Assembly: GCF_000284115.1 (NCBI RefSeq)
Contig: NC_017080.1
Location: 1,140,001 to 1,172,000 of the forward strand
Length of the DNA: 32,000 nucleotides
Origin: Phycisphaera mikurensis NBRC 102666
GTDB taxonomy: Bacteria > Planctomycetota > Phycisphaerae > Phycisphaerales > Phycisphaeraceae
Direction: 5' to 3'
How positions within the stretch are numbered: position 1 is the stretch's first letter; each line of letters opens with the position of its first letter. A program made the position numbers and the translations under genes. Positions 4,238 to 31,660 of the stretch are shown in pieces. The notes under the pieces were generated by a model. The model had not been told where the DNA came from. It did no database searches and worked only from the letters and a program-made list of their open reading frames with translations.

Positions 4238-5415
4238 GCGGAGGCGGCGCCGGCGGCACCGGCGGTGGCGGGCGGGCCGACGAGCATCCCCTCCGGCAGC
4301 TCCGCGGGCATCGGGGCCGGCCGCTCCGCGGTGCTGCCGAGGCGGACGAACCCCGCCCGCTCGGCCGACTCCCCGCAGGCGACGATCGCGTCGAGCACGT
4401 GCAGGCCGAGGGCGCCGGAGCAGCGGGGCTCGCGGTTCTCCGCGAGCGCGGCCGCCATGTCGGCCAGCCCGACCGATCGCTCGAAGCCCGTCGGCGTCGC
4501 GGCTCCGAGCTCGCGCGGCCCGTCCTCGTCCACCCGCTGAAGGATCGGCAGCAGGTCGAACTGGTTGGGGTCGGGCACCCGGAGGGCGCCCTCGGTTCCG
4601 TACACCGTGATCGGCCGCTGCCGGTCGTAGAAGCTCACCCGCGTCGCGAAGGAGGTGCTCAGCGTCCCGGTCGGCCCCGAGGCGAAACGCAGGATCGCGG
4701 CGAAGTGATCGGGCACCTCGATCTCGAAGCCCTCGCCGTGCCGAGGGCCGGGGCCACCGGCGGCGTCCCGGTGCGTGATCTCCCGCCGCGGGATCTTCTT
4801 GTCGGCGAAGCAGCCGACCGTGGAGACCGGCCCGAGAAGGTTCACCAGCGCCGTGAGGTAGTACGGCCCCATGTCGAACATCGGCCCGCCGCCGGGCTGG
4901 TAGAAGAACTCGGGATTGGGGTGCCAGTGCTCCACGCCGCGGGCGAACATCCGGGCGTCGAAGTGCAGCGGCTCGCCGATGAGCCCGTCGTCGATCGCCC
5001 GGCGAGCCGTCTGCTGCCCGGCGCCCAGGAAAGTGTCCGGGGCGGTACCGACGGTGAGGCCCGCGGCCGCGGCCTCGGCCAGCAGCGCCGAGCTCTCTTC
5101 GCGGTCGGTGCCCAGCGGCTTCTCGCCGAAGACGTGCTTGCCCGCGGCGATGGCCCGGCGGCCGGTCTCCGCGTGCGCGGTCGGGATCGTCAGGTTCAGC
5201 ACGCAGTCGACCTCCGCGGCCGCGAAAAGCTCGTCCACGCCGTAGGCCGCGGGCACGCCGAAGCCTGCCGCCGCGGACTCCGCCGCCTCGCGACGGAGAT
5301 CGGCCACGGCGACGATCTCGAAGCCGCGGTGGGTCGCGGCGTGGGGCAGGTACTTCTTGCGGGCGATGTTGCCGCAGCCCAGGACGCCGACGCGGAGGGG
5401 TCTGGAATCAGCCAT
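4234..5415 (-). CDS. Gfo/Idh/MocA-family NAD(P)-dependent oxidoreductase
   Basis: I trimmed the 599-aa track ORF to the ATG at 5415 ([25 protein letters not shown]), which gives a Rossmann GxGxxA start typical of the family. The upstream 200 aa are Arg/Pro/Gly-rich junk. The stop overlaps the sulfatase start by 4 nt (4234-4237), which suggests co-translation. Confidence 0.85.
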
Positions 5416-8287: not shown

Positions 8288-10036
8288 TCACGAAACGCGG
8301 ACCTCCACCACGCAGACCGACGCCGCGGGCAACTCGACGTCCACGGCGGCGCCGCCCTCGGCTTCGTGTGCCCGCGCGTCCAGCTCCCGCGTGCGGGCTT
8401 TGGTTCGGGCGTAGGGCTGCGACTCGTCTTCGTCGGGGAGCAGGGCGTGCAAGACCACCCCGCTCACGGAGCCGGGCTCCACACCGCGGAGCAGAAGGCG
8501 GACGGGCAGCGGCCGGCCGAAGCCGCGGTGGATGACGTGGACCAGCACGCGGCCGTCGTCGGCGGTGGCGACCACGTCGAGCGGGCCGATCTCCGGGCCG
8601 ATCGCCTCGCCGTCGAGCGTCAGGTCCAGCCGGGCGGGAGCGGGGGGGTTCTCGATGCTCACCGCCCGCACGTGATCCCCGTGCAGCCCGGCGTAGAGCG
8701 AGGCCACCCGGCCGGTGGGGGTGAGGTACACGCCACCGGGTTCCTCGGGGTTCCCGCGGACCGAGCCGATCGTCCAGCGCTCGGCGAGCATCATCGACTG
8801 CGTCGCGAGCGTCACCTTCCCGGGCCCCTCGCCCGCGTGCCGCAGCAGGCCGTGCAGGTAGCCGGCGGAGCCGAGCGCCCGGGCGTGCGCGGTGACCGTG
8901 GGGTGGGGCTTGTCCCAGCCGCCCCAGCCGTTCCAGTTCCACTCGGTGCAGGCGACCTCGTAGCCGCCTCTCTTGGCGATCGCAAGAAAAGCCGGATCCA
9001 GCGAGCGTGACGCGCCGCTGGCGTCGATGCCGCGCGGGTGCCAGACGCCGAAGAGGTGCAGCGCCTCGGCCGGAAGGTCCGCGCCGGCGGTGGGCTCGCC
9101 GTTGAAGACGAAGTTCCCCTTGCCCCAGGGCCCGTAGTGGTGCCGGGTGATCCAGCGGAAACGCTCCCGCACCCGCGGGTCCAGCAGGATGGTCGCGTCC
9201 GCGACCTCATCGCGGAACTCGCCCTCCCCGACCAGCTCGATCGTCGGGTCCACCGCGAGCATGGCGTCGGCGATCGCGACCAGCGCATCGGCGATGCGCC
9301 CGGCCGCGGCTCGCTTCTCCGCGGGTGTCTTCCCGGCCCAGAAGTCGCCGTGGCGCTTGCCCTGCAGCTGGACGAACAGCTCGTTGCCGACCTGCCACCG
9401 CTGCACGCCCCAGGGCTCGAAGCGGCCGTTGGCCGCACGCAGCGCCGCCCACTTCTGCGTCTCGGGATCCATCCCCGGCTCCAGCGGCGCGTTCATGTAG
9501 GCCACCAGGCCCGCGGCCTGGGCCGCCGTCTCCGCGAGGCTCGACCCGTCGCCGCGTCGGCCCTCGGGGTCCTCGAGGCCCAGCGCGTCCACGACCGCCG
9601 GCGCGGCCTTCACCACGATCAGCGGCTCGGCCCCGAGCTCCCCGCAGAGCTCCAGGAACCGGTCGTAGGTGAAGCGGTTGGTCAGCGGCTCCTCGCCGCG
9701 GCTCTTCGAGCGCGGCTGCTCCGGGCGGCCGGGCATTTCGATGCGGTCGGTCCAGCGGAGGAAGGGCAGGTCGCTGCCGGCGGGGAAGCGGAGGATCGGC
9801 GCGTTCAACTCCCGCAGCTTCGCGACGACGGCGTCCGGCAGCTCGCCGGTCTCCTCGTCGGCGAAAGCTTCGGGCCCGCGCTCGCCCCAGCTGGCGATCT
9901 CCAGGAACTGCCCGAAGAGCAGCGGCGACAGCGGCGGCCCCGCCTCGGCCGCGACCCGGATGGCCGTGACGGGCTCGGCCCGCAGCGGGAGCGTCGCGGC
10001 GGCGAGCAGGAGGACGGCGAGCGGGAGGAGCTTCAT
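8288..10036 (-). CDS. Secreted clan GH-A glycoside hydrolase, GH51 alpha-L-arabinofuranosidase-like
   Basis: I trimmed the ORF to the ATG at 10036, which gives the signal peptide MKLLPLAVLLLAAATLPLRA. LRFPAGSDLPFLRWTDRI, FLELCGELGAEPLIVV, WQVGNELF (acid/base NE) and VACTEWNWNGWG (nucleophile E) parallel conserved GH51 blocks. A C-terminal beta-sandwich follows. Confidence 0.6.
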   Translation of the reverse strand: MKLLPLAVLLLAAATLPLRAEPVTAIRVAAEAGPPLSPLLFGQFLEIASWGERGPEAFADEETGELPDAVVAKLRELNAPILRFPAGSDLPFLRWTDRIEMPGRPEQPRSKSRGEEPLTNRFTYDRFLELCGELGAEPLIVVKAAPAVVDALGLEDPEGRRGDGSSLAETAAQAAGLVAYMNAPLEPGMDPETQKWAALRAANGRFEPWGVQRWQVGNELFVQLQGKRHGDFWAGKTPAEKRAAAGRIADALVAIADAMLAVDPTIELVGEGEFRDEVADATILLDPRVRERFRWITRHHYGPWGKGNFVFNGEPTAGADLPAEALHLFGVWHPRGIDASGASRSLDPAFLAIAKRGGYEVACTEWNWNGWGGWDKPHPTVTAHARALGSAGYLHGLLRHAGEGPGKVTLATQSMMLAERWTIGSVRGNPEEPGGVYLTPTGRVASLYAGLHGDHVRAVSIENPPAPARLDLTLDGEAIGPEIGPLDVVATADDGRVLVHVIHRGFGRPLPVRLLLRGVEPGSVSGVVLHALLPDEDESQPYARTKARTRELDARAHEAEGGAAVDVELPAASVCVVEVRVS

Positions 10037-10218
10037 GGGGAGGATGAGCCGCGGCGAGCGGGGCCGCCCGGCGGGCGGTTTCGGCGTCGAGCCCTCGGAT
10101 CCACTTCCTGATCGTCGAGCCGTGGCCGTGGCCGTGGTCGCGCGGGCGGGCGTGGTGCCCGGTGGCTCCGTCCACCCGCGGCCGATCCGGGGGCCGAGGA
10201 GCCGCGGACCGCGGCGGA

Positions 10219-10231
10219 TTTCCGCCGGAAA
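10219..10231. promoter_or_regulatory. Palindrome TTTCCGCCGGAAA nested in a CGGACCG...CGGTCCG inverted repeat (candidate regulator site)
   Basis: Perfect 6+1+6 palindrome 26 bp upstream of the ATG at 10257, in the divergent GH51-like/DUF5060 intergenic region. It is flanked by CGGACCG (10205-10211) and CGGTCCG (10238-10244). No cognate regulator is identified. Confidence 0.25.
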
Positions 10232-10256
10232 CGTCGACGGTCCGCGGAGGGTACAC

Positions 10257-12146
10257 ATGGACGGCAAACGATTACATTCGAGGATCCGCACCCGTTTCCT
10301 GCTCATGCACCGTTTCCTCCTCGCAGCGTTCACCACCTCCGCCACCCCACTCCTCCTCCTGCTGACGCTGACGCTCGCCGGACCCGCCGCCGCGAGCGAG
10401 CCGCCCGAAGCGGTCGCCCGCCGGCCGGTGACACTGGACTTCCCGGTGGAGGAAACGAGCGAGACCGCCGCCGACAACCCCTTCCTGAACCGCCGCTTGC
10501 AAGTGCGGTTCGAGAAGGACGGCGAGGCGTTCAGCGTCCCGGGCTTCTACGCCGCCGACGGCGACGCGGCCGAGACCGACGCCGACGCCGGCGGCGTCTA
10601 CCGCGTTCGCTTCACCCCGCCAGCGCCGGGGACCTGGCGCTACGAGGTCGCCTTTCGGCGGGGGCCGGGGGTCGCCATCGACGACGACCCGCGGGTGGGC
10701 GAGCCGGTCGCCCCGCACGACGGGACGGCCGGCACGCTCGCGGTCGCGCCCGCGCCCGCGGACGCCACCGGCTTCGCCGCCTCCGGCGGGCTGATCCACC
10801 CGCCGGGCCATTACGTCCACACCCGCGACGGCGGGCCGGTGCTGCTCTTCGGGCCCAACTCCCCGGAAAACTTCCTCGCCTACGAAGATTTCGACGGCAC
10901 GTCCTCGCACAACCCCGAGCGGCAGCTGGTCAAGAGCTGGGGCCCGCACGTGCGGGACTGGAACGAGGGCGACCCGACCTGGCGCGACGGGCTCGGCAAG
11001 GGCATCCTGGGCGCCCTCAACTACATCGCCGGCCAGGGCATGAACGTCGTCTACGTGATGACGCTCACGCTCGAGGGCGACGCCTCGGACGTGTGGCCGT
11101 TCATCGGCCCGGAGAAGGGCGACTTCACCCGCTTCGACGTGAGCAAGCTGGACCAGTGGGAGATCGTCTTCGCCCACGCCGAGCGCCTCGGCGTCGCGCT
11201 GGAGCTGATCCTCCAGGAGCAGGAGAACCAGATGCTGCTCGACGACGGCAACCTGGGACCGGAGCGGAAGCTGTACCTCCGCGAGCTGACCGCCCGCTTC
11301 GGCCACCTGCACAACCTCCTCTGGAACATCGGCGAGGAGAACGGCCCCGGCGGTGGCAGCTGGCCGCAGGGCCAGAACGACCAGCAGCGCCTGGCGATGA
11401 TCCGCTACTTGAAGGACAACGACCCCTACAAGCGGCCGGTCCTGATGCACACCTACTACACGGACAACGCGCAGCGGAACAACATCCTCGAGCCGCTGCT
11501 CCGGTACGACCGCTTCGATGGCATCTCGCTGCAGAGCGGGCGGATCGAGCCCGTTCACCACGACGTGAAGAAGTGGATCGACCTCTCGGCCAAGCGGAAG
11601 CGGCCCTGGATCGTGCTCATGGACGAGATCGGCCCGTGGCAGACCGGCACGCTCGAGGACGACCGCGACCCGGCGCACAACGCGCTGCGGCAGGACGTGC
11701 TCTGGGGGGCACTCACCGCCGGCGCCGGGGGCGTGCAGTGGTACTTCGGCTGGTTCAGCGAGAACACGGACCTGAACACCGAAGACTGGCGGACCCGCGA
11801 GAACATGTGGGAGCAGACGCTCGTCGCCCGCCGCTTCTTCGAGGACCTTCCCTTCACGGAGATGTCCTGCACCGACGAACTCGTCGACGCGGAACGGACC
11901 TGGTGCTTCAGCAAGCCCGGCGAGGTGTACGCCGTCTACCTCAAGGAGGGCGGCACGACCCGGTTGGACCTCCGGGAGGAAGACGGCACGTTCGAGGTCC
12001 GCTGGCTGAACCCGCGGACCGGCGGGGAGCTGCAGACCGGCACCGTCGAGACCGTCACCGGCGGCGACCGCGTGGAGCTGGGCTTCGCACCGGCGCAGAC
12101 CGACCGCGACTGGGCGGTGCGGGTCCGCCGCTCGCCCCCGCGGTAG
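10257..12146 (+). CDS. Secreted DUF5060-domain glycoside hydrolase (GH5-like/DUF4038-type TIM barrel with collagen-binding-like C-terminal domain)
   Basis: I trimmed the ORF from 9669. The ATG at 10257 (or 10305, MHRFLLAAFTTS...) gives a signal peptide. VTLDFPVEETSETAADNPFLNRRLQVRFEKDGEAFSVPGFYAADG matches the DUF5060 pattern. WNIGEENG and IVLMDEIGPW are candidate acid/base and nucleophile blocks. The C-terminal EVRWLNPRTGGELQTG resembles the WxxPxTGE pattern of the putative collagen-binding domain seen in GH140-type proteins. Confidence 0.6.
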   Translation: MDGKRLHSRIRTRFLLMHRFLLAAFTTSATPLLLLLTLTLAGPAAASEPPEAVARRPVTLDFPVEETSETAADNPFLNRRLQVRFEKDGEAFSVPGFYAADGDAAETDADAGGVYRVRFTPPAPGTWRYEVAFRRGPGVAIDDDPRVGEPVAPHDGTAGTLAVAPAPADATGFAASGGLIHPPGHYVHTRDGGPVLLFGPNSPENFLAYEDFDGTSSHNPERQLVKSWGPHVRDWNEGDPTWRDGLGKGILGALNYIAGQGMNVVYVMTLTLEGDASDVWPFIGPEKGDFTRFDVSKLDQWEIVFAHAERLGVALELILQEQENQMLLDDGNLGPERKLYLRELTARFGHLHNLLWNIGEENGPGGGSWPQGQNDQQRLAMIRYLKDNDPYKRPVLMHTYYTDNAQRNNILEPLLRYDRFDGISLQSGRIEPVHHDVKKWIDLSAKRKRPWIVLMDEIGPWQTGTLEDDRDPAHNALRQDVLWGALTAGAGGVQWYFGWFSENTDLNTEDWRTRENMWEQTLVARRFFEDLPFTEMSCTDELVDAERTWCFSKPGEVYAVYLKEGGTTRLDLREEDGTFEVRWLNPRTGGELQTGTVETVTGGDRVELGFAPAQTDRDWAVRVRRSPPR

Positions 12147-13263: not shown

Positions 13264-15054
13264 TCACTCGTACGCGATGTCGTCGAGGAAGAAGCGCACC
13301 GGCCGGCCCCGGCCCTCGACGGCGAAGAGGAAGCCGGTCTTGATCCGCGAGAGGTCGGCGCCGGCGAGGTCCAGCTCGTAGCGCTTCCACGCGTCGGTGA
13401 GGGTGACCGTGGTCTCGGCGGAGCCCGTGTCGGGGTGCGGCTTGTCGGCGCCGAGCACGCCGAGGCCGAACTTCACCCGCTCGCCGCCGCGGGCGCCGCG
13501 GGCCCACCACGAGAGCGTCGTGGCGGGTCGGAGGTCGTGCCCGCCCGGCAGGTCGCCCCAGTCGTTGGCGGGGTGCTGCCAGACGACGCCGCCCCAGCCG
13601 GAGGCCCCGGTGAAGCTCGCGACGAGGCAGGTCTCACCGGTTCTTGGAGCCTCCCGGCTGACCTCCAGCGTGGTGGCGGCCACGTCGCCCATGAAGCCCG
13701 ACGGCGTCCAGGGGGCGGCGGCTCCTTCGGGGTCCACGCGGAAGGGCAGGTCGGCCCCGCCGCCGGCCAGCGGCTCCGGCGGCACGCGCACGAGGACCGG
13801 CACGTTGGCGGTCGCGGCGTGGCCGGCGGGGTCGCGGGCGTACGCGAACAGCCGGTAGGCGCCCGGTTTCTCCGGCAGGCGGAGCGTCGCGGAATCCGCG
13901 GACCGTGACGTGAAAACGCCCGAAACCTCCGCGGTCCGCGGCTCGAAGTCGCCGCCCACGCCGTCGCCGGCGGAGGCCTCGCGGAGGACCCACGCGACCT
14001 CCAGCGGCTCGCCCTCGGGGTCGGTCGCCTCGAGGTCCGCAACGAGCGTCGCGCCCGGTGCGGCGACCACGTCGCCGTCGAGCGTCAGCCCGGACACCGC
14101 CGGCGCCAGGTCGGCCGGTGCGTCGCCGGACCACAGCCGGGTCATGGTGTCGACGGCCGCGGTCCTGGAGCCGTCGGCCAGGAACATGCCGTACCAGGTG
14201 TCGGTGGTCTCCTGCTTGTCGCCCCAGAGGAAGGCGTAGGTGCCCAGGCAGGTGTCGGGATGTCCGTTCACGCTCGCCTCGTACCCGCGGCGGTAGAAGT
14301 CGGCCTTCTGCGTGGAGGTCTGCTCGACGGGCGTGCCCCAGGCGGCCTTGCCGACCTCCCAGTGGCCCAGCGGCCCGTGCTCGGTGAGCGCCCACGGCTT
14401 GCCGACGGCGGGCTCGACGGCGGCGTAGCGGTCGCCGACGTTGATCGCGCCGCCGTAGGAGTTGATGCCGACGACGTCGACCGCCGGGCACAGGTCGCGG
14501 ATCTTCTCGGCCTTGATCGCCCCCGGGCCGAGGTCGGCGATCACCGTCATCGTCGGGTGGTCCGGGTCCATCGCCTTGAGCGCGGCGGCGAGGTCGTTGA
14601 CCGCGGCGTAGACCGCGTCGCGAGCGCCCGCCCCCTCCATCTCGTTGCCCACGCCCCACATCAGCACCGCCGGATGATCCATCAGCGACCGGGCCTGCGC
14701 CAGCAGCTCGTCGTGCTGTTCCTTCACGAACGCCGGGTCGTCGTACGAGTGCCCGTGCCGCTCGTGCTCCATCCACAGGCCGACGGTGACGGAGAGCCCC
14801 AGCGCGTGCGCCTCGTCCAGCAGCGGCCGGGTCGTGGCGTCGACGCCCCAGGTGCGCAGCGAGTTTGCACCCGCCGCGGCGAGCTCGGCCAGACGCGTCG
14901 TGCCGCCGACGCCCCGGATCGCGTACGGCTCGCCGTCGCGGAGCAGGGTGAAGCCGCCGTCGGCTTCGGTGATCGTGGTCGGCGTGGGCGCGGCGTGGGC
15001 GGGAGCGGCCGCGAGCACGGCAGCGGCGAGCAGCGGGGCGAGGCGGCGGAGCAT
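13264..15054 (-). CDS. Secreted clan GH-A (GH2/GH5-like TIM barrel) glycoside hydrolase with Ig-like and CBM-like C-terminal domains
   Basis: 596-aa ORF with signal peptide MLRRLAPLLAAAVLAAAPAHA. DHPAVLMWGVGNEMEG supplies the acid/base NE and KPWALTEHGP a candidate nucleophile. The C-terminal ~150 aa (VVWQHPANDWGDL...PVRFFLDDIAYE) look like a beta-sandwich carbohydrate-binding module. I cannot assign the exact GH family by eye. Confidence 0.55.
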   Translation of the reverse strand: MLRRLAPLLAAAVLAAAPAHAAPTPTTITEADGGFTLLRDGEPYAIRGVGGTTRLAELAAAGANSLRTWGVDATTRPLLDEAHALGLSVTVGLWMEHERHGHSYDDPAFVKEQHDELLAQARSLMDHPAVLMWGVGNEMEGAGARDAVYAAVNDLAAALKAMDPDHPTMTVIADLGPGAIKAEKIRDLCPAVDVVGINSYGGAINVGDRYAAVEPAVGKPWALTEHGPLGHWEVGKAAWGTPVEQTSTQKADFYRRGYEASVNGHPDTCLGTYAFLWGDKQETTDTWYGMFLADGSRTAAVDTMTRLWSGDAPADLAPAVSGLTLDGDVVAAPGATLVADLEATDPEGEPLEVAWVLREASAGDGVGGDFEPRTAEVSGVFTSRSADSATLRLPEKPGAYRLFAYARDPAGHAATANVPVLVRVPPEPLAGGGADLPFRVDPEGAAAPWTPSGFMGDVAATTLEVSREAPRTGETCLVASFTGASGWGGVVWQHPANDWGDLPGGHDLRPATTLSWWARGARGGERVKFGLGVLGADKPHPDTGSAETTVTLTDAWKRYELDLAGADLSRIKTGFLFAVEGRGRPVRFFLDDIAYE

Positions 15055-18089: not shown

Positions 18090-19508
18090 TCAGCTCGGCG
18101 CGGCGTCCGCGGACCGCCGGCCGTTGCCGCCGGAAACGCCTGCGGTCCGCGGGCCCGGCTCGCCGAGCCGGCGACGCAGCAGGTCGATGTGCATCCGGAG
18201 GTTGTAGAACTCCTCCATGTACGAAAGCGGCACCTCGGTGTCGGCGGCTTCGTCGTCGAGGGCCGCGAGCCGCTCGCGGAGGCCCTCGGGGGCATGCCCC
18301 GCTTCCGCGTCGGCTTCGATCGCACGCAGCCGCGTGTACCACCGGTAGATCCGCCGCCGGAGCCGCCACCGCAGCACCGGCGGCGCTGCGCGGGCGAGCG
18401 GGATCAAGAGCGTGAGCAGCGGGAGCAGCAGGATCGCCAGCCGGTCCAGCGCACTCGCGAGGCCGAAGGGCAGGTGCCGGTAGAGCGCGCTGGGCCCGCG
18501 TTCGAAGAAGTGCCGGGCCTCGTCGGCGATCGGCAGCGGCGCGTGCAGCAGCGTGGGGAAGGTGCCGGCGTCGGCGAGCAGATCGGGCGTCGCGTCCTCG
18601 CGGGCGGCCTGGACGAGCAGCTGCACGATCGCGCGGTGCGTGTCGTCGCGGACCGCGAAGAAGGTCGCGGCGGCGACGGTCTCGACGTCGGCGGCGGGCA
18701 GGTCACGCGACGGATCGACGACGCCGCGGAGCAGCGTGACGGCGGCGAGCGCCGCGTCGCGGCGGGCGAGGGCTCCCGCCTGGGGGAGGCTGGCCACGAC
18801 GAGGCCCGGATCGGCGAGCACGGCCGCGACCCGGGGGGCTTCGGGGGCGAGCACGAGGAAGGCGGCGTCTGCGTCGTCGGAGCGCAGGAGGCCGAGCGCC
18901 GCGTCGCCGCCAACCCGGAGGCGGGGCGTGGCCTCGGCGCCCTCCCGGAGCAGGCCGGCGAGGATCCGCCGGGCCAGCGGCTCGGTCCCGCTGCCGGCTC
19001 CGCCCACCGCCACGCGGGCGTCCTCGGCCAGGCCGGCGGCGGCCGGGAGCGGCACCGGCACCACCGGTGCGTCGCCTTGGCGGCGCAGCACCAGCAGCAC
19101 GGGCTCGAAGCCGACGGTGACGACGGCTTGCAGCGTCTCCGCTCCTCCGGCTTCGGCGAAGCCGCCGCCCTGCAGCAACGCGGCGTCGACCTCGCCACGC
19201 CGGAGCAGATCCGCGTTCCGGGCGGAGCCCGAGGTCGCCCGGAGCTCCACCTCGATCCCCCGGCGCGCGAGCGAGGCCGCCGCCCGCTCCGCGATCTGCC
19301 GGTACGCCCCGCCGTCGGGCCCCGTCGCGATCCGCACCACCGCCGGCGGCGCCGGCTCGACGAACGACCACGCGACCGCGAAGCCGATGGCCGCGAGCAG
19401 CACCACCGGCCCCCAGACCTTCACCGCCTCACGCGTCGCGCTGCGGCTTGGCTTCCGCGGCGGGAGGGCATCGGCACCGGGCGGCGTGGCGTGCGGGCGT
19501 GTCATCAT
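18090..19508 (-). CDS. TAXI-family (TRAP-associated) solute-binding protein with N- and C-terminal TM helices and a cytoplasmic tail
   Basis: I trimmed the ORF to ATGATG at 19508; the longer track ORF would overlap the tRNA. N-terminal TM WGPVVLLAAIGFAVAWSF. TAXI blocks: VRIATGPDGGAYRQIAERAAASL, SGSARNADLLRRGEVDAALLQGG, VAVGGAGSGTEPLARRIL. Then a second TM LAILLLPLLTLLIPL and a basic, helical tail LRWRLRRRIYRWYTRLRAIEADAEAG... Confidence 0.7.
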   Translation of the reverse strand: MMTRPHATPPGADALPPRKPSRSATREAVKVWGPVVLLAAIGFAVAWSFVEPAPPAVVRIATGPDGGAYRQIAERAAASLARRGIEVELRATSGSARNADLLRRGEVDAALLQGGGFAEAGGAETLQAVVTVGFEPVLLVLRRQGDAPVVPVPLPAAAGLAEDARVAVGGAGSGTEPLARRILAGLLREGAEATPRLRVGGDAALGLLRSDDADAAFLVLAPEAPRVAAVLADPGLVVASLPQAGALARRDAALAAVTLLRGVVDPSRDLPAADVETVAAATFFAVRDDTHRAIVQLLVQAAREDATPDLLADAGTFPTLLHAPLPIADEARHFFERGPSALYRHLPFGLASALDRLAILLLPLLTLLIPLARAAPPVLRWRLRRRIYRWYTRLRAIEADAEAGHAPEGLRERLAALDDEAADTEVPLSYMEEFYNLRMHIDLLRRRLGEPGPRTAGVSGGNGRRSADAAPS

Positions 19509-19589: not shown

Positions 19590-19662
19590 AGCCACCGGTC
19601 GGATCCGAACCGACGACCGTCGCTTTACAAAAGCGGTGCTCTACCAACTGAGCTACGGTGGC
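19590..19662 (-). tRNA. tRNA-Thr (anticodon UGU)
   Basis: Hand-folded cloverleaf from the reverse complement GCCACCG-TA-GCTC-AGTTGGTA-GAGC-A-CCGCT-TTTGTAA-AGCGA-CGGTC-GTCGG-TTCGGAT-CCGAC-CGGTGGC-T. The acceptor stem is 7 bp and the T-arm is perfect. There is one C/A mismatch at the top of the anticodon stem. CCA is not encoded. Confidence 0.9.
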
Positions 19663-19895: not shown

Positions 19896-19968
19896 AGCCA
19901 CCGACTGGGTTCGAACCAGCGACCTGTTCGTTACGAATGAACTGCTCTACCAACTGAGCTACGGTGGC
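19896..19968 (-). tRNA. tRNA-Thr (anticodon CGU)
   Basis: Reverse complement GCCACCG-TA-GCTC-AGTTGGTA-GAGC-A-GTTCA-TTCGTAA-CGAAC-AGGTC-GCTGG-TTCGAAC-CCAGT-CGGTGGC-T. The first 26 nt and the acceptor stem are identical to the UGU isoacceptor. CCA is not encoded. Confidence 0.9.
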
Positions 19969-23135: not shown

Positions 23136-23421
23136 TCCCACGCTCCGGTTTGCCACGGCTGCCGGAACGGCTCCGGGACCGCGGGACCGCGGCACGGAGG
23201 CGGGCCGGGTGCGTCGGGCGGATCGAGCACGGCGCGGCAGGGACGTGGCGCCACGCACGCCGCGGCCGCCGACGCCGTGATCGAGATCGGGGTGGTGATC
23301 GTGTCCGACGACCGAGGGCCTTGGGTTTCCGTCCGCATCATCCGCACGGTCGACCGCACGCCGACCCCGGATCCCGCGGACCGCCGGGCGGACGCGTCGG
23401 GAGGGCCGACGGTCCGCGGGT

Positions 23422-24207
23422 TCAGCTCGAAGCCGATGTGTACGACCGCAGCGCGAAGCCCCAGAACCACCGGCTGAACGCGAGCAGGCCGCAGGCCACC
23501 AGCGCCGAGCCGAGCAGCCAGCCCCACGAAGGCCCGCGGGCGAGGGTGGCGGCGGGCACGGTCGTCATGAAGGCAGCGGGCACGACGAAGGTGAACACGA
23601 AGCGGTAGCCGGGCGTGTACGCCGACACCGGGAAGCGGCCGCTCTCGAGCAGGGCTTGCATCGCGATGGTGATGTTGTCGGTCTTGGTGAACCAGATGGT
23701 GCAGGTCGCCAGCACGAAGCCCAGCGCGTAGAGGATCGCCACCGCCAGCGCGACCGGCACGGCGGCGAGGGCGAAGTCGCTGATCGTCGCGGCGGGCTCG
23801 AGCCGCCGCCCCGCATACACGACCAGGCCCAGCCCCAGCGCGAGGTTGGGGAAGCCCCAAATCGAGAGCTTCCGCAACGAGAGGTGCACCTGCGCATCGA
23901 TCGGCTTGAGCAGCGCGTAGTCCAGCGTGCCCTCGCGGACCAGCTGCGTGAAGGCCGCGCGGTTGGGCCCGAGCACCGCCTGCTGCACGCCGTCGAGCAG
24001 CGTGTACACCGCGACCACGAGCATCGCTTCGGGCCAGCTCCAGCCGCCGAGCTCGTGCCCGTTCTGGTAGAGCACGCCCAGCGTGAACAGCGAACCGGCG
24101 ACGCCGAGCAGCGAGGCGACCGCCGACAAGACGAAGTTCGCGCGGTACTCCGCCTCGCTGGCGAGGGCGGAGGACCAGTAGCGGGCAAGGGTGGAGAGGG
24201 TCGACAC
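23422..24207 (-). CDS. ABC-2 family transporter permease (DUF990/ABC2_membrane_6-like), subunit B
   Basis: 261-aa polytopic membrane protein with a GTG start at 24207 and six hydrophobic segments. It is the last gene of a three-gene ATPase plus two-permease arrangement typical of this family. Confidence 0.7.
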   Translation of the reverse strand: MSTLSTLARYWSSALASEAEYRANFVLSAVASLLGVAGSLFTLGVLYQNGHELGGWSWPEAMLVVAVYTLLDGVQQAVLGPNRAAFTQLVREGTLDYALLKPIDAQVHLSLRKLSIWGFPNLALGLGLVVYAGRRLEPAATISDFALAAVPVALAVAILYALGFVLATCTIWFTKTDNITIAMQALLESGRFPVSAYTPGYRFVFTFVVPAAFMTTVPAATLARGPSWGWLLGSALVACGLLAFSRWFWGFALRSYTSASS

Positions 24208-24230
24208 GGGAACGAGAGCGAAGGAGCGGG

Positions 24231-24282
24231 GAAGCGAAGAAGCGAAGAAGCGAAGAGGCGAAAAAGCGAAGAAGCGAAGAAG
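24231..24282. repeat. Octanucleotide tandem repeat (GAAGCGAA)n, 6 copies plus a partial copy
   Basis: Read directly: GAAGCGAA x3, GAGGCGAA, AAAGCGAA, GAAGCGAA, then GAAG. It lies in the 110-bp spacer between the two permease genes. In mRNA sense (minus strand) it reads (UUCGCUUC)n, a pure CU/G-poor tract ending 23 nt before the GTG start at 24207. Confidence 0.9.
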
Positions 24283-24317: not shown

Positions 24318-25133
24318 TCAGGCGCCCATGGCGGAGTAGCGGCGGAGGCCGGCCCGCCACAGCACGCGGTTGAGCACGAGAAGCCCCGCGAGCCACGCCC
24401 CGATCGTTGCGAAGCCATGGATCAGCGGCGGCTGCCCGCCCGCGAGGATCGTCGCGGGGAACCAGGCCAGCCAGGGGAAGGGCGTCCACTTGAGCGCGGC
24501 GGCGACGCCGGCGGGCAGCGCCTCCAGCGGGAAGAGCAGGCCCGAGAGGAACAGGTACGGCAGGTAGGCCAGCGGCTCGAAGGCCAAGACCCGCTCGAAC
24601 CAGAACGCGAGCATCGCCAGCGTGTACTGCAGGAGGAAGCGGAAGGCGAAGGCGGCGTAGAGGGCGACGAGGAACGCGAGCCCCTCGGCGACCGAGGGCA
24701 GCAGCCACGCCCCCGGATCGTCCGGGTCCTGCAGCGCGGCGGGGTAGAGCCACAATCCCAGCGCGAACACGGCGGCGAAGAACGGCAGCCGGGCGAGCTG
24801 CTCGCCGAGGTGCGTCGCGAGGAAGACGAAAGCCGGATCCAACGGGTGCAGCAGCTTGGGCGACAGCTTGCCGGAGAGCACGTGGTGCTCGAATTCGTAC
24901 AGCACCCAGGCCACCGTCACCTGCCGCACCACGAACACGGCGAGGAAGTAGCGGGCGGCCGAGGCCGCGGTCACATCGGGGAACGACCCGCTGGCGCCCG
25001 CCTCGATCCAGATGCCCATCATGATCAGCGGCAGCGCCGAGGCGACCATCCACAGGAAGATCTCCACGCGGTAGGTCAGCATGTAGGCGTACCACGTGGT
25101 GAGCAATGCCCAGGCGGTGCGGAGCGACGGCAC
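24318..25133 (-). CDS. ABC-2 family transporter permease (DUF990/ABC2_membrane_6-like), subunit A
   Basis: I trimmed the 338-aa track ORF, which would overlap the ATPase by 200 nt. GTG at 25133 follows the ATPase stop (25135-25137) after a single intervening nucleotide (25134). ATG at 25082 (MLTYRVEIFLWMVASALPLIMMG) is the alternative start. The protein is polytopic and hydrophobic. Confidence 0.7.
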   Translation of the reverse strand: MPSLRTAWALLTTWYAYMLTYRVEIFLWMVASALPLIMMGIWIEAGASGSFPDVTAASAARYFLAVFVVRQVTVAWVLYEFEHHVLSGKLSPKLLHPLDPAFVFLATHLGEQLARLPFFAAVFALGLWLYPAALQDPDDPGAWLLPSVAEGLAFLVALYAAFAFRFLLQYTLAMLAFWFERVLAFEPLAYLPYLFLSGLLFPLEALPAGVAAALKWTPFPWLAWFPATILAGGQPPLIHGFATIGAWLAGLLVLNRVLWRAGLRRYSAMGA

Positions 25134-25134
25134 C

Positions 25135-26151
25135 TCAGGCGTCCCCGTCCGCGGCGGCTTGCCCCGAGCCGAACAGCTTCGCGATTGTCGCCTCGATCGG
25201 CGGGTCGCCGACGGTGAGGTCGGCGATGGGCAGCTCGCGGAGCAACCCGGCCACCGCAGCCGTAAGGTCGGTCCGGTCGAGCAGCAGCCGGATCGCCCGG
25301 CCCTCGTGGTGCTCGACGGCGCCGCGATGGTCAAGCGACGCGGCTTCCTCCGCTGTCAGCTCGCGCTCCAGCTCCAGCTTCACCTCACGCCGCGGGGCGA
25401 AGGTCTCGATCACGCCGGCGAGGCTGCCCCGGTACAGCACGCTCCCGTGGTCGATGACGATCACCCGCTCGCACAGCGCGGTCACGTCGCCCATGTAGTG
25501 CGTGGTGAGCAGGGCGGCGGCGTCGTGCTGACGCACGTAGTCGCGGAGGAACCCGCGGACCGCGACCTGCGCGTTGACGTCGAGCCCCAGCGTCGGCTCG
25601 TCGAGGAAGAGCACCTTGGGGTGGTGCAGCAGCGAAGCGACCAGCTCGCACTTCATGCGCTGGCCCAGCGAGAGCTTGCGGACCGGCTGGGTCAGCTCCT
25701 CGCCGAGGCCCAGCATCTCCGCGAGAGCGGCCGTCCGCCGGCCGGCCTCCCGCGCCGGCACGCCGTACATCGCCGCGTTGATGCGCAGCGTGTCCAGCGT
25801 CGGCAGGTCCCAGATGAGCTGTTGCTTGTTGCCCATCACCAGCGTGATCTGCCGAAGCAGCGCCGCCTCCCGCCGGAACGGCCGGCACCCCAGCACCTCC
25901 ACCTCGCCCGCCGAGGGGTGGATCAGCCCGGCGAGCATCTTGATCGCGGTGGTCTTGCCCGCCCCATTGGGCCCGAGGAAGCCGACGACCTCCCCGGGCT
26001 CCACCGCCAGGTCGATCCCGCGGACCGCCTCGACGTCGCGGTGCTTCCGCTTGACGAAGTGTCGCAGCGTGCCCGCGAGGCCGGGCTGCTTGTCGGCGAC
26101 GCGGTACGTCTTGGCGAGCTTCGTGGCGGAGAGCATGGGCAAGTGCGGCAT
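25135..26151 (-). CDS. ABC transporter ATP-binding protein
   Basis: Walker A GPNGAGKTT, signature LSLGQRMK, Walker B VLFLDEPTLGLD and a C-terminal extension domain. The ATG is at 26151. Confidence 0.9.
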   Translation of the reverse strand: MPHLPMLSATKLAKTYRVADKQPGLAGTLRHFVKRKHRDVEAVRGIDLAVEPGEVVGFLGPNGAGKTTAIKMLAGLIHPSAGEVEVLGCRPFRREAALLRQITLVMGNKQQLIWDLPTLDTLRINAAMYGVPAREAGRRTAALAEMLGLGEELTQPVRKLSLGQRMKCELVASLLHHPKVLFLDEPTLGLDVNAQVAVRGFLRDYVRQHDAAALLTTHYMGDVTALCERVIVIDHGSVLYRGSLAGVIETFAPRREVKLELERELTAEEAASLDHRGAVEHHEGRAIRLLLDRTDLTAAVAGLLRELPIADLTVGDPPIEATIAKLFGSGQAAADGDA

Positions 26152-26170
26152 TGTTGCAGCGCTCTCCCGG

Positions 26171-26790
26171 CAGGTGGCTCACACACTCCGTGCGTGTGGC
26201 TGCTGAGGAAGGCGGTGCAGCGGAGGTGCGCGAGCGGCGTCGGGGTGGCGTTGAAGCTGTTCGTTTCAGCGGGCGTCTACATCCACGGAGTGGATGAGCC
26301 ACCTGTGAATCAGGTGGCTCACGCACTTCGTGCTTGTGGCTGCTGAGGGGGGCGGTTCAGCGGAGGTGCGCGAGCGGCGTCGGGGTGGCGTTGAAGCTGT
26401 TCGTTTCAGCGGGCGTCTACATCCACGGAGTGGATGAGCCACCTGTGAATCAGGTGGCTCACGCACTTCGTGCTTGTGGCTGCTGAGGGGGGCGGTTCAG
26501 CGGAGGTGCGCGAGCGGCGTTGGGGCGGCGTTGTAGCTGTTCGTTTCAGTGGGCATCTACATCCACGGAGTGGATGAGCCACCTGCGGAGCGGATCAGGT
26601 GGCTCACGCACTTTGTGCGTGTGGCTGCTGAGGGGGGGCGGTTTAGCGGAGGTGCGCGAGCGGCGTCGGGGCGGCGTTGGAGCTGTTCGTTTCAGCGGGC
26701 GTCTACATCCACGGAGTGGATGAGCCACCTGCGGAGCGGATCAGGTGGCTCACGCACTTCGTGCGTGTGGCTGCTGAGGGGGGCGATTCA
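26171..26790. repeat. Tandem array of a 135/136-bp hairpin-dense element with 11-bp terminal inverted repeats (4 full copies plus 1 truncated)
   Basis: Copies lie at 26171-26305, 26311-26445, 26451-26585, 26596-26731 and 26742 to about 26790. Each full copy starts CAGGTGGCTCA and ends TGAGCCACCTG. The linkers are TGAAT (x2) or CGGAGCGGAT (x2). The periods are 140, 140, 145 and 146 bp, none a multiple of 3. Copies 2 and 3 differ at 5 positions. Confidence 0.95.
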
Positions 26791-27060
26791 GCCGAGATGC
26801 CCGCCGGCATCCGGCCCGGAACGCTGCGGCCGACGATCGGAGCCAGCGGCCGCTTCCACGCCGGCGGGTCTGCGTCCGCCGCGCACCGAGCCGCGGTGCT
26901 GGACGCGCTGCTCGCCCGCCTTGTCCGCGGCCACATGCGACGACGGCCGCGTGCGGATGGCCGTGCCCGAGAACGCGGGAGATCCCGGTCGCTTCAAGGC
27001 ACCCGCGGCCGGATTGGAGCCGCGGGTGCACGATTGGGTGGCTGACGGCTCAGCACCGTC

Positions 27061-27106
27061 CCGCGGACCGTGGCCGTTCTCCCGGGGGAACGACCTCGGT
27101 CCGCGG
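27061..27106 (-). terminator. Nested GC-rich hairpin just downstream of the PEP-CTERM gene stop (candidate terminator)
   Basis: CCGCGGACC (27061-27069) pairs with GGTCCGCGG (27098-27106). They enclose the inner palindrome GTTCTCCCGGGGGAAC. The structure starts 16 nt after the stop at 27122 on the minus strand. There is no U-tract. Confidence 0.35.
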
Positions 27107-27121
27107 ATGCCTGCCGCGCGC

Positions 27122-27838
27122 TCAGCCCCGCCGGCGGCCGAGCAGGGCGACGCCGCCGAGGGCCACCAGCGCGAGGCTGGCGGGCTCGGGGACGGTGTCG
27201 AAGGTGGCGGTGATGGCGAGGTCCTGGGCGTCGGTGGCGCCGCCGAGGAAGCCCGTGCCCGAGGGCGGACCGAAGAGAGCGGTGACGTCGAAGTTGCCCG
27301 TGCCGCCGAGGTTGGTGATCGGCGTGAAGACGCCGGGGCTGCTCTCCTCGAAGCCGACGAAGGCCACCGAGACGCCCAGCGGCGTGAGGTTGCCGGCGCC
27401 GTCGTCGGTCACGAAGACGGCGGAGTAGGGGGCGTCGTCGGTGTAGCTCAGCTCCAGGCCGCCGAACTCGAAGTCGTAGGCGGTGCCGTACACGGCGGAG
27501 GTGGTGTCGACGGTGTTGGTCGACACGCCAACCGCGTCTGCGGCGGTGAGCCCGCCGCTGAAGTCGAAGAAGGCGGCGGGCAGCACCGCGAGCAGCGTGG
27601 AGGTGGAGCCGACGCCGTCGCCGCCGGAGGTGAAGCCGAAGGTCTCGAGGAAGACCGAGTCGCTCGGGGCGAGGCCCGGGTCGGGCGTGGCGCCAAGCGA
27701 CGGCACGAAGCTCTGCCCGTAGGCCGTCGTCGCGCCACCCAGCGGGGTCGACAGCGTGAAGGGCACCGCGGCGGCGGTGCCGGTGACGGCGAGTGCGGCG
27801 GCGGTGGCGGCGAGGGTTCGGGCGGTGGGGAAGGACAT
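27122..27838 (-). CDS. PEP-CTERM-anchored secreted protein
   Basis: I trimmed the ORF to the ATG at 27838 (MSFPTARTLAATAAALAVTGTAAA signal peptide), with AGGAGA 5 nt upstream. The C-terminal VPEPASLALVALGGVALLGRRRG is a PEP-CTERM sorting signal. Confidence 0.8.
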   Translation of the reverse strand: MSFPTARTLAATAAALAVTGTAAAVPFTLSTPLGGATTAYGQSFVPSLGATPDPGLAPSDSVFLETFGFTSGGDGVGSTSTLLAVLPAAFFDFSGGLTAADAVGVSTNTVDTTSAVYGTAYDFEFGGLELSYTDDAPYSAVFVTDDGAGNLTPLGVSVAFVGFEESSPGVFTPITNLGGTGNFDVTALFGPPSGTGFLGGATDAQDLAITATFDTVPEPASLALVALGGVALLGRRRG

Positions 27839-27902
27839 GGGGTCTCCTGGGGAGTTCCGAAAGATGGCCCTGACGCGGGCGGCGAGCGACCGGAGTGGCC
27901 GC

Positions 27903-27920
27903 ATTCTGAACGTTCAGAAT
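27903..27920. promoter_or_regulatory. Perfect 18-bp LacI-type operator ATTCTGAACGTTCAGAAT
   Basis: Perfect CG-centred palindrome 65 bp upstream of the PEP-CTERM ATG and 44 bp downstream of the LacI-3 stop. It overlaps the candidate -10 box. Confidence 0.6.
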
Positions 27921-29144: not shown

Positions 29145-31637
29145 ATGATTCCAGCCCCTCGCCACCGCTTCTGCCTCGACACCGGATGGCGCTTCAGCCT
29201 CGACGACCCCGATGCCCCCCGGGCGATCGCGTGGAGCGACGAGGAGCGGAGCCTGCTGGGCTTCGAGCCCGAGCTGGGCAAGGCCAACGGCGTGGTCTGG
29301 AGCAAGGCGGGCAAGTGCTACGGCCCGGCCGCGGCGGGCTTCGACGCCAGCGGCTGGCGGAGCGTCGACCTGCCGCACGACTGGTCCGTGGAGCGGGCGC
29401 CGGACCCGGCCTTCCCGCTGCGCAACGGCTTCCTCGCGATGGGCATCGGCTGGTACCACCGGCCGCTCCGCGTCGACCCGGCCTGGGCGGGCAAGCGGGT
29501 GACGCTCCGCTTCGACGGGATCTACCGCGACGCGACCGTCTTCGCCAACGGCCACGTGCTCGCCTTCCACCGCTCGGGTTACCTGCCGCTGGAGGTGGAC
29601 CTCAGCGACGTCCTCGACTTCGAGAACCCCGAGCACAACGCCATCGCCGTGCGGGTCGACGCTTCCGAGAAAGAGGGCTGGTTCTACGAGGGCTGCGGGA
29701 TCCACCGCCACGCGTGGCTGACGGTCACCGACCCGGTGCACCTGGTCACCGACGGCGTCTTCGCCCAGGTCGATTGGACGCCCGGCGAAGCGGCGAGCGT
29801 CGGGCTCTGGGCCGAGGTCGGCAACGCCGCGGACCGCGGCCTCGAGGCGGAGGTGGAGCACGCCGTCCGCGGCGCCGGCGGCGAGCTGGTGGCGGTGATG
29901 CGGGCCGCGGTCTTCGTGGAGCCCGGCGGCGTGTCGACCACCCGGCAGGCGCTGGTGATCGACTCGCCGCGGCCCTGGGGGCCGGAGGATCGGCACCGCT
30001 ACCGCGTGACGACGCGGCTCCGCGTCGATGGCCGGGTGGTCGACGCGCGGGAGGACCGCTTCGGGGTGCGGCACGTCGCCTTCGACGCGGCGACCGGCAT
30101 GAAGCTCAACGGGGAGCCGCTCAAGCTCAAGGGCGTCTGCTGCCATCCCGACCACGCCGGCGTCGGCTCCGCCCTGCCCGACGACCTGCAGGTGTGGCGG
30201 CTCGAGAAGCTGCGCGAGCTGGGCTGCAACGCGTACCGCGCGGCCCACAACCCGCCGACGCCGGAGGTTCTGGAGGCGTGCGACCGCCTGGGGATCCTCG
30301 TCATCGACGAGGCCCGCGTCTTCGGCGTCGGCGAGGAGCACCTCGGACAGCTGGAGTCGATGATCCGCCGCGACCGCAACCACCCCTGCGTCATCCTCTG
30401 GTCGCTGGCGAACGAGGAGATGCAGGTGCAGTGCACGCCCGTGGGCGCCCGGATGCTCAAGACGGCCCTGCGGCGGGCCCGCCGGCTCGACGCGACCCGC
30501 GGCTTCACCACCGCGGTGAACACCGGGTGGGACGGCGAGGTCGGGTTCATCGAGCACGCCGACGTCCACGGCATCAACTACTTCGGCAACGGCGACATCG
30601 ACGAGCTCCGCCGCGTGCGCCCCGACGTGCCGGTGATCCTCTCCGAAGGCGCGAGCGCCATCTGCACCCGCGGGGCGTACGCCAACGATCCCGCTGCGGG
30701 TTACGTCGCCGAGTACGACGACCACACGCCGCCGCCGGCCCACCCGCAGCTGATGCAGTGGCCGCACTGGGGCCGCTGTGCCGGGGACTCCTGGCGTCAG
30801 GTCGCCGCCCGCGCCGACGTCGCCGGCACCTTCGTCTGGACGGGCTTCGACTACCGGGGGGAGCAGACGCCCTACCAGCGTTGGCCCGGCACGGGCTCGC
30901 ACTTCGGCATCTACGACAGCTGCGGCTTCCCCAAGGACGGGACCTCCTACTACAGGGCTTGGTGGTCGGGCGAGCCCGTGCTGCACGTCTTCCCGCACTG
31001 GAGCTGGCCGGGCCGCGAGGGGGAGACGATCGACGTGTGGGCCTACAGCAACGCCGCGACGGTCGAGCTGTTCTGCAACGGCCGTTCGTGCGGCGAGCGG
31101 AGCATCCCGCGGAACGGGCACGCGTCGTGGCCGGTTCCTTACGAGGCCGGCGAGCTGTCGGCGGTCGCCCGCTGGGCCGACGGATCGGAGCGTCGGGCGG
31201 TCGTCGAGACCGCCGGCCCGGCGGTGGGCCTGCGGCTGGAGCGGGTCGCGCCCGAGCTGAGGCTCGCAACGACGCCGGTGCTCGCGGGCGATCCGCAGCC
31301 CCGGACGCTCGGCATCGTCCAGGTCGCCGTCGTCGACGCCGCCGGCCGCACCGTGCCCACAGCGATGGACCGCCTGACCTTCTCGCTCGACGGCGGGGCG
31401 GTCCTGCTCGGCTTGGGCAACGGCGACCCCAACGCCGACGGCATCGAGGCCCCGCGTTCCGCCACCGCCGAACGCGGCGCCTTCCACGGCCTGGCCCAGG
31501 CGCTGGTCGGCCTCGCCGCGGGCACCCCCGCGGTGCTGCGGGTGGCTGCCCCGGGCCTGGAGGCCGGCGAGCTCCTCCTCGACGCGGAGACCGCCGTCTC
31601 CACCGCCGCCCCGCGGACCGAGCGGGTTACCGGCTGA
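29145..31637 (+). CDS. Glycoside hydrolase family 2 (beta-galactosidase/beta-glucuronidase-like)
   Basis: 830-aa ORF. Sugar-binding domain: WRSVDLPHDWSVE, GWYHRPLRV, VTLRFDGIYRDATVFANGHVLAFHRSGYLPLEVDLSDVL. TIM barrel: NAYRAAHNPPTPEVLEACDRLGILVIDE and RNHPCVILWSLANEE (acid/base). No signal peptide is apparent. Confidence 0.85.
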   Translation: MIPAPRHRFCLDTGWRFSLDDPDAPRAIAWSDEERSLLGFEPELGKANGVVWSKAGKCYGPAAAGFDASGWRSVDLPHDWSVERAPDPAFPLRNGFLAMGIGWYHRPLRVDPAWAGKRVTLRFDGIYRDATVFANGHVLAFHRSGYLPLEVDLSDVLDFENPEHNAIAVRVDASEKEGWFYEGCGIHRHAWLTVTDPVHLVTDGVFAQVDWTPGEAASVGLWAEVGNAADRGLEAEVEHAVRGAGGELVAVMRAAVFVEPGGVSTTRQALVIDSPRPWGPEDRHRYRVTTRLRVDGRVVDAREDRFGVRHVAFDAATGMKLNGEPLKLKGVCCHPDHAGVGSALPDDLQVWRLEKLRELGCNAYRAAHNPPTPEVLEACDRLGILVIDEARVFGVGEEHLGQLESMIRRDRNHPCVILWSLANEEMQVQCTPVGARMLKTALRRARRLDATRGFTTAVNTGWDGEVGFIEHADVHGINYFGNGDIDELRRVRPDVPVILSEGASAICTRGAYANDPAAGYVAEYDDHTPPPAHPQLMQWPHWGRCAGDSWRQVAARADVAGTFVWTGFDYRGEQTPYQRWPGTGSHFGIYDSCGFPKDGTSYYRAWWSGEPVLHVFPHWSWPGREGETIDVWAYSNAATVELFCNGRSCGERSIPRNGHASWPVPYEAGELSAVARWADGSERRAVVETAGPAVGLRLERVAPELRLATTPVLAGDPQPRTLGIVQVAVVDAAGRTVPTAMDRLTFSLDGGAVLLGLGNGDPNADGIEAPRSATAERGAFHGLAQALVGLAAGTPAVLRVAAPGLEAGELLLDAETAVSTAAPRTERVTG

Positions 31638-31660
31638 TCGAGCCCGCGGTCCGCGGAGAC

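Follow-up and report, generated by a model that had tools for sequence, protein, structure and literature searches.

What is the tandem array of hairpin-dense units, each of about 135 bp, that lies immediately before the start codon of an ABC-2 transporter operon in Phycisphaera mikurensis NBRC 102666? We addressed this question in a stretch of 32,000 nucleotides of contig NC_017080.1 (positions 1,140,001 to 1,172,000), hereafter called the window, for which a preliminary description from the sequence had located the array and offered several possible origins. It is highly probable, in our analysis, that the array is a tandem cluster of repetitive extragenic palindromic (REP) doublets carrying the GT[AG]G tag, and that it is the remnant of a REPtron orphaned by loss of the REP-associated tyrosine transposase (RAYT) gene at this locus. 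A REPtron consists of a gene for a RAYT (TnpA_REP) transposase together with the cognate REPs on its flanks, and the REP-RAYT system with GT[AG]G-tagged REPs is reportedly the subject of work by Nunvar in 2010 and Ton-Hoang in 2012. The array adds a new case to a known class of repeats, selfish or domesticated, and is neither a new RNA nor a new mechanism.

The organization of the array was established with Tandem Repeats Finder (TRF), by direct reading and by alignment of the copies. TRF returned one array, at 26171-26800, with a period of 140, 4.4 copies and 93% matches. These approaches bore out the four full tandem units of 135 bp and the truncated fifth, starting at 26742, of the preliminary description. 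The units are c1, nearest to the ATPase gene of the operon (26171-26305), c2 (26311-26445), c3 (26451-26585), c4, which is of 136 bp (26596-26731), and the truncated c5 (26742-26800), which holds a B-type REP arm and about 30 nt of interior. The short linker TGAAT separates c1 from c2 (26306-26310) and c2 from c3 (26446-26450), and the long linker CGGAGCGGAT, which reads ATCCGCTCCG on the gene strand, separates c3 from c4 (26586-26595) and c4 from c5 (26732-26741), the order along the array being short, short, long, long (5-bp and 10-bp types). The two pairs of linkers and the perfect 11-bp termini had also been described correctly, as reading and copy alignment confirmed. The termini CAGGTGGCTCA / TGAGCCACCTG bound the units as perfect 11-bp inverted repeats and extend to imperfect ones of about 27 nt (about 80%). 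Exact CAGGTGGCTCA occurs nine times in the window, each time at a unit end; allowing one mismatch gave 10 matches versus 0.5 by chance, the tenth being at 17029. The copy alignment likewise reproduced the six differences counted between c1 and c2, the five between c2 and c3 and the loop series TCC/TTC/TTC/TTT/TTC. A protein-coding array was rejected, as had been proposed, with stops found in every period in all six frames, and the exclusion of a CRISPR array also held, the entire 140-bp period being repeated with no unique spacers.

The ends of the units have the structure of REPs. From the outside inward, 5' to 3', both arms are composed of (CA)GGTGGCT, a 7-bp stem starting with C, a 3-nt loop, a return stem ending with G, and T[A/G]G, and the general module at unit ends follows the pattern 5'-GGT[A/G]GCT, 7-bp stem, 3-nt loop, T[A/G]G. 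Arm A is CATCCAC-TCC-GTGGATG then TAG, and arm B is CACGCAC-TTC-GTGCGTG then TGG. Every unit contains an A arm and a B arm in inverted orientation, 81 nt apart, with their GT[AG]G tails outward. The GTGG of the unit tails is a form of GT[AG]G, the tag by which the largest REP super-family is defined (PMC3733652; PMC6006769). The comparison with BIME-2 (bacterial interspersed mosaic element) or REP clusters and with a mobile-element relic, made in the preliminary description, is therefore well founded, since GT[AG]G-tagged REP hairpins stand at the unit ends.

The 7-bp stem and 3-nt loop were found at all nine arms of the window, with 6 or 7 of the 7 pairs formed. The tail followed by a 7-bp hairpin occurs nine times in the window against 0.14 expected, and is at least 50-fold above the shuffle expectation in every locus. 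With a REP model, we obtained nine hits in the window with scores of 38.6-42.8 bits, all within the array, while the next hit scored 17 bits. They are located at 26173-26201 (+) and 26275-26303 (-) in c1 (41.5-41.6 bits), 26313-26341 (+) and 26415-26443 (-) in c2, 26453-26481 (+) and 26555-26583 (-) in c3, 26598-26626 (+) and 26701-26729 (-) in c4, and 26744-26772 (+) in c5 (42.6 bits). The left-arm hairpin of the preliminary description is present, but it is imperfect in three of the five copies: the stem of c1 contains an A.C pair on the plus strand (G.T on the minus strand), and c2/c3 carry a C.T mismatch that is a wobble on neither strand. The A-type arms are perfectly conserved among the P. 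mikurensis copies.

Through ATPase homologues we reached arrays of homologous 135-bp units in L015 and L017, two contigs from a single metagenome; their ATPases share 86-87% identity with that of the window. In L015, four tandem units (8568-9137) are followed by a gene on the opposite strand, one unit (9847-9981), 19 nt and the ATPase ATG. In L017, the ATPase ATG is followed by 19 nt, one unit, the same gene as in L015 and two tandem units. No units were found in L016, where the ATPase is 81% identical. The 12 units of P. mikurensis and these relatives align end to end with a mean column identity of 87%, and the 10-nt linker is homologous as well, ATCCGCTCCG corresponding to T[CT]CCGCTCCG and CCCCGCTCCA in the relatives.

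The gene nested in the L015 and L017 arrays encodes a 215-residue HUH/Y1 protein, intact in L017 as P0121. The advice of the preliminary description to look for a RAYT or IS200-type TnpA was rewarded here, by a RAYT-like gene inside the homologous array of the sister genomes. In L015, a long-read metagenome contig, the gene (9151-9798, minus strand) carries a 1-nt frameshift near codon 178, P0121 being 96% identical and intact; the frameshift reflects either an indel of the assembly or recent decay to a pseudogene. After correction of the frameshift, the C-terminus reads ...FWQSE-SFDHLVRN...YIEENP, and the NCBIfam score rises from 32 bits, as called in L015, to 49 bits. The best NCBIfam match is REP_Tyr_transpos (NF047646), with E=5.9e-13 and 48.9 bits for a curated cutoff of 80, and the Pfam family PF01797 is matched with 15.8 bits for a cutoff of 23. 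With scores below these cutoffs, the protein is a divergent member of the family. Within an alignment of 28 homologues, the HxH, WQ, D-H..R and NP (Y..NP) motifs and the catalytic tyrosine are invariant, the residues being H135/H137, W174 Q175, D180 H181 R184, Y195 and N199. A search of the PDB with the family profile gave 4er8 (E. coli TnpA_REP) first, with E=5e-4, whereas the single-sequence PDB search with the L015 reading frame, as called or corrected, found no relevant relative. With an AlphaFold model (pLDDT 87), Foldseek returned 4er8_A at the top (E=1.4e-5), followed by IS200/IS605 transposases. Additionally, many homologues carry the JGI name 'REP element-mobilizing transposase RayT'. 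By motifs and length only, the gene appears most like subclass 2.7 (PMC6006769), with which it shares its length, a long N-terminal extension, NH[VL]H, WQ, YI..NP and an Asp at the E100 position; the genes of this subclass are flanked by GT[AG]G REPs (Quentin et al., PMC6006769). Phycisphaera is absent from the supplements of PMC6006769. The RAYT gene is single-copy in each locus examined.

The association between RAYT and inverted doublets extends to more distant loci. Four RAYT homologues, 53-67% identical, were considered (L018-L021). L019 has tandem 192-bp units with the tail GGGTAGCT and the hairpin CATCCAT-TCC-ATGGATG-TAG, L018 has the tails GGGTGGCTCC, and L020 and L021 contain canonical REPs with GTAG at the foot of a 9-bp stem, arranged as inverted doublets with the tags outward. 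The tag is GTAG in L019, L020 and L021 and GTAG or GTGG among the relatives as a whole. It stands 2 nt from the stem in the P. mikurensis clade and directly at its foot in L020/L021; an offset of 1-2 nt is known for some subclasses (PMC6006769). Inverted doublets flank RAYT in L015 and L017 as in L018-L021, and because these distant homologues are also flanked by structured inverted doublets, the P. mikurensis element is one end of a graded series of ordinary REPtrons.

We then considered which part of the unit is constrained. A gap-free alignment of 22 distinct REP arms from five loci showed the 7-bp helix paired in 97.4% of cells, a fraction that is partly circular as the arms were chosen for having a hairpin, with double changes at 6 of the 7 pairs. 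The covariation score is 0.711, compared to 0.17 in shuffles (0 of 500 reach 0.711) and at most 0.106 with slid partners, and a covariance model trained on the arms finds further arms outside its training set. Unit ends share 89% identity between P. mikurensis and the relatives, and interiors 65%; the adjacent ATPase gene gave 73% at its third codon positions. The interiors therefore diverge at least as fast as third codon positions, and selection acts on the REP modules rather than on entire units. In the 12-unit alignment, the interior hairpins of the preliminary description are not kept in the relatives. Units of one genome share 92-96% identity, a sign of recent duplication or gene conversion. 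When the units were folded as single-stranded DNA (ssDNA), the termini paired and local hairpins formed (z from -2.6 to -4.9), the interior pairing weakly.

In P. mikurensis itself, a tblastn search for RAYT, another check proposed beforehand, was negative in the window and in a 21-kb stretch of a draft assembly of the same species (L014). Among the 120 best RAYT homologues (down to about 38% identity), none is attributable to P. mikurensis, in a protein database that contains its proteome, the window ATPase having a 100% match there; the two homologues common to NCBI and Logan come from other metagenome-assembled genomes and not from P. mikurensis. The window lacks a RAYT flanked by REPs. It is thus a remnant and not a complete REPtron, because RAYT is missing here and present in the homologous L015 and L017 arrays, and P. 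mikurensis appears, by this comparison of sequences, to have lost the RAYT gene at this locus and kept the repeats.

The preliminary description had asked whether the array might be an assembly artefact. The draft assembly GCA_014207395.1 (locus L014) has the same array minus exactly one 140-bp period: over 1.1 kb, there is no mismatch with the window besides a clean 140-bp deletion that removes c2 and its linker (window 26311-26450). Unit c2 is an exact chimera of the left part of c3 and the right part of c1, a pattern expected from unequal crossing-over and equally from collapse by a short-read assembler. The Logan short-read contig breaks inside c1, about 30 nt beyond the last c1-specific base, which is the behaviour expected at a genuine repeat. 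Because the same array is found in the draft assembly, the contig breaks at it and homologous arrays exist in two other genomes, the array is real and not an assembly artefact as such, but the second assembly has one unit fewer, and the copy number is 3.4 or 4.4 depending on the assembly.

These data suggest how the array may have arisen. The REP ends would be recognised as ssDNA hairpins, through their stem and tag, and would be cut and rejoined by RAYT; recognition, cutting and rejoining of ssDNA REP hairpins have been shown for E. coli TnpA_REP, according to PMC6006769, which cites Ton-Hoang 2012 for it. By this activity RAYT would have created and spread the doublets. The copy number of the array may then shift by unequal recombination or slippage, c2 being an exact recombinant of c3 and c1. 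Once the RAYT gene was lost, the array of P. mikurensis would have persisted as a relic, probably a passive one by now. Its proximal unit, at least, is likely transcribed with the ABC operon, to judge from its position, and because of this same position the array probably is either transcribed in the operon leader or serves as a hairpin barrier between the upstream gene, which encodes a PEP-CTERM protein, and the operon.

Several observations weigh against the REPtron remnant. All nine REP arms of the 32-kb window lie in one array, while a dispersed population is the defining property of REPs and REPINs (REP doublets forming hairpins). Two scans of a genome collection and one of metagenomes gave no related copy, although the collection may omit this genome. 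Exact 23-mers had 0 hits in the species-representative genomes and in JGI metagenomes, and a degenerate REP pattern, which occurs ten times in L015, had 0 hits in the species-representative genomes. Such genomes are evidently missing from the collection or masked in it, so that its 0 hits say little about dispersal. The GT[AG]G tail is 2 nt off a short stem, and not at the foot of a long one, and the RAYT-like protein scores below both curated cutoffs, that of NCBIfam and that of Pfam. Finally, the distance to the start codon is fixed at 19 nt in three genomes, which a passive relic does not predict.

Other searches with the array were uninformative or negative. Twelve metagenome loci retrieved with a termini-only pattern have unrelated interiors and were set aside as chance matches or other elements. 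Among plasmids, BLAST gave no match to the array. Nothing scored when the six-frame pseudo-protein of the array was compared with the protein database to detect reading frames wrongly called over dispersed copies, the candidate list being probably swamped by low-complexity words.

In the RAYT-bearing relatives, REPs occur at 2-3 loci per about 20 kb, with extra doublets at 4682-4893 and 14540-14691 in L015, 3066-3217 in L017 and 1997-2736 in L019. The last of these is a composite REP cluster about 7.5 kb from RAYT, in which a duplicated REP pair (GGTGGCTC tails, copies 615 bp apart) surrounds one of the 192-bp units that flank RAYT; by this cluster, the units are dispersed in the L019 genome. 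The L015 doublet at 4682-4893 lies between divergent ABC and GntR genes and has the hairpin GCCGCC-TAC-GGCGGC with GTAG/GTGG tags of the same super-family. It is adjoined by a 14/29/58-bp tandem repeat (GGTGCGCAGCACGCC-like) at 4539-4685.

Considering that the spacing of 19 nt is the same in three genomes whose ATPases are only 86-87% identical, and that the operon-proximal unit has survived in P. mikurensis without its transposase, it is conceivable, though unlikely, that the operon-proximal unit has been co-opted by the host as a promoter or as an element for stability or translation in the 5' untranslated region (UTR), the copy number tuning exporter expression. The fixed spacing could then reflect a host function. 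If true, an orphaned REPIN array would here have become a dial of expression driven by recombination.

We consider it rather improbable that the array serves the ABC-2 operon as a structured RNA leader or cis-regulatory element, acting in a minus-strand transcript in which each unit is an RNA domain for stability, termination or translation. The end of the array 19 nt before the ATG in three genomes makes it likely that the proximal unit is in or at the 5' UTR, and folding of the minus strand beats that of shuffled sequence (z=-7.8). In favour of a leader, too, no sigma-70-like promoter was seen between the array and the ATG; a scan of 25900-27400 for sigma-70 promoters and intrinsic terminators found none, a result that is uninformative for a planctomycete. 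However, the plus strand is more stable (z=-11.3). Rfam, which the preliminary description had proposed as a check of the unit, gave no relevant match at either the gathering or a permissive threshold, the best hit in the array reaching 20 bits for a gathering score of 82. The selection on minus-strand structure that had been read from the hairpins, with a multi-hairpin leader as its outcome, is not sustained: the interiors are no better conserved than third codon positions (65% versus 73% identity), the interior hairpins are not kept in the relatives, and the G.U wobble invoked for it rests on one base in one copy and is offset by the true mismatch of c2/c3, which exists on both strands. Moreover, homologous units are present beyond the divergently oriented RAYT gene, at unrelated loci and in other orientations, and the two arms are conserved as inverted copies of a single module, as recognition by a protein or as ssDNA predicts.

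We regard as very unlikely a host-selected array of protein-binding sites (for a nucleoid-associated protein, gyrase or an IHF-like protein, as in E. coli BIMEs) or a transcriptional insulator, kept for a function in the chromosome or operon independently of RAYT. It would account for the retention at the same site in three genomes, one of them without RAYT, for the fixed spacing of the proximal unit to the start codon, and for P. mikurensis copies that are 92-96% identical with A-type arms perfectly conserved. Nevertheless, similarity within a genome is equally expected from recent duplication or gene conversion, of which the recombinant c2 is an instance, and B arms with a stem mismatch number 3 of 5 in P. 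mikurensis versus 1 of 10 imperfect arms in the RAYT-bearing L015 array, a difference suggestive of decay, as a weak hint, and statistically not significant. Least plausible of all, to the point of being scarcely credible, are tandem miniature inverted-repeat transposable elements (MITEs) of a classical (DDE) insertion sequence mobilised in trans, for although the perfect 11-bp terminal inverted repeats (about 27 nt at about 80%), the 135-bp length and array boundaries that all fall at unit ends would suit them, no direct target-site duplication stands beside units with non-repeat neighbours, no DDE parent was seen, the only unit-associated transposase being HUH/Y1, the supposed terminal repeat holds the GT[AG]G tag and a REP-typical hairpin, with the A/G alternative in relatives, and the plasmid and metagenome searches turned up no relatives with the same ends and a related interior.

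The array lies in a minus-strand gap of 970 bp, between the PEP-CTERM protein gene (27122-27904, minus strand) and the ABC-2 operon, in a window with a G+C content of about 73%. Immediately downstream of the array, the operon starts with the gene of the ABC-2 transporter ATPase (25135-26151, minus strand), which is followed in the same operon by two ABC2_membrane_6 permease genes (24318-25133 and 23422-24207). The spacer between the proximal unit and the ATPase ATG (26152-26170, minus strand) has the same length in P. mikurensis, L015 and L017; the 20 bp previously given for it, with the ATG at 26151, are 19 nt by our count. The strong hairpin reported past the PEP-CTERM gene, at 27061-27106, exists, but it is one of six window copies of a separate family of dispersed palindromes, CCGCGGACCG-N26-CGGTCCGCGG (10202-10247, 13896-13941, 18107-18152, 23374-23419, 27061-27106 and 31611-31656). 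This family has a constant span of 46 nt with a variable interior, and at least three of its copies directly follow stop codons (those of permease 2, the PEP-CTERM gene and a GH2 gene). Its 9-mer occurs 22 times versus 3.1 expected, and every one of the Phycisphaerae relatives (L015-L019) has the same arms. These palindromes may act like terminators or form a second REP-like family.

An 8-bp microsatellite, AGCGAAGA x8.2, lies at 24217-24282, between the two permease genes, and again at 11861-11926 in L014; at this position, L015 has a different tandem repeat, of 16 bp (11933-11985). The sole Rfam matches at gathering level in the window are two minus-strand tRNA genes, at 19590-19662 and 19896-19968.

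An unexplained hairpin-dense tandem repeat thereby becomes an annotatable cluster of REP/REPIN type, and the documented range of GT[AG]G REP-RAYT systems is extended to the Phycisphaerae (Planctomycetota). Three genomes offer a natural series at one orthologous site, with RAYT and its flanking doublets on one side and RAYT lost with the array retained on the other, which is useful to follow the fate of REPIN arrays after transposase loss and gives a way to test the effect on expression of REP clusters beside start codons. In practice, there is also a warning here that short-read assemblies break or collapse at this locus.

Compared with known systems, the P. mikurensis units resemble the Correia elements of Neisseria and other bacterial MITEs in having a length of about 100-150 bp, inverted repeats of about 26 nt at their ends, an intergenic position by start codons and the potential to alter transcription. 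Correia elements, however, have TA target duplications and no HUH partner, while the P. mikurensis units are without duplications and have a RAYT partner in relatives. With E. coli BIME-2 they share inverted REPs in tandem, two linker types, an extragenic position between co-directional genes and a variable copy number. This resemblance is architectural only, as there is no sequence similarity to Y/Z2 REPs or to their linker motifs; the period is about 140 bp here versus about 80-100 bp, and the linkers are not strictly alternating. REPINs (Bertels and Rainey 2011) are similar in having two inverted REPs, as in each unit of about 135 bp, concerted evolution within the genome and association with RAYT. 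They form a dispersed population, whereas the P. mikurensis doublets stand head to tail with conserved linkers, and the weakly pairing interior means that the unit is not one long hairpin. The REPtron (class 2 of Quentin 2018) differs from the array in that the window is without a RAYT gene, 2 nt separate the tag from a short 7-bp stem, and there is a second T[AG]G directly at the 3' foot; the protein of the relatives falls below the curated thresholds, and the host is a planctomycete of the Phycisphaerae. Like a REPtron, the sister genomes have an HUH/Y1 gene with hairpins bearing a 5' GT[AG]G tag on both sides. The nearest structure to the product of this gene is that of REP-bound E. coli TnpA_REP (4er8), and the residues that reportedly read GTAG (the equivalents of W94, Q95, D100, H101 and R104, PMC6006769) are invariant in the alignment of its family.

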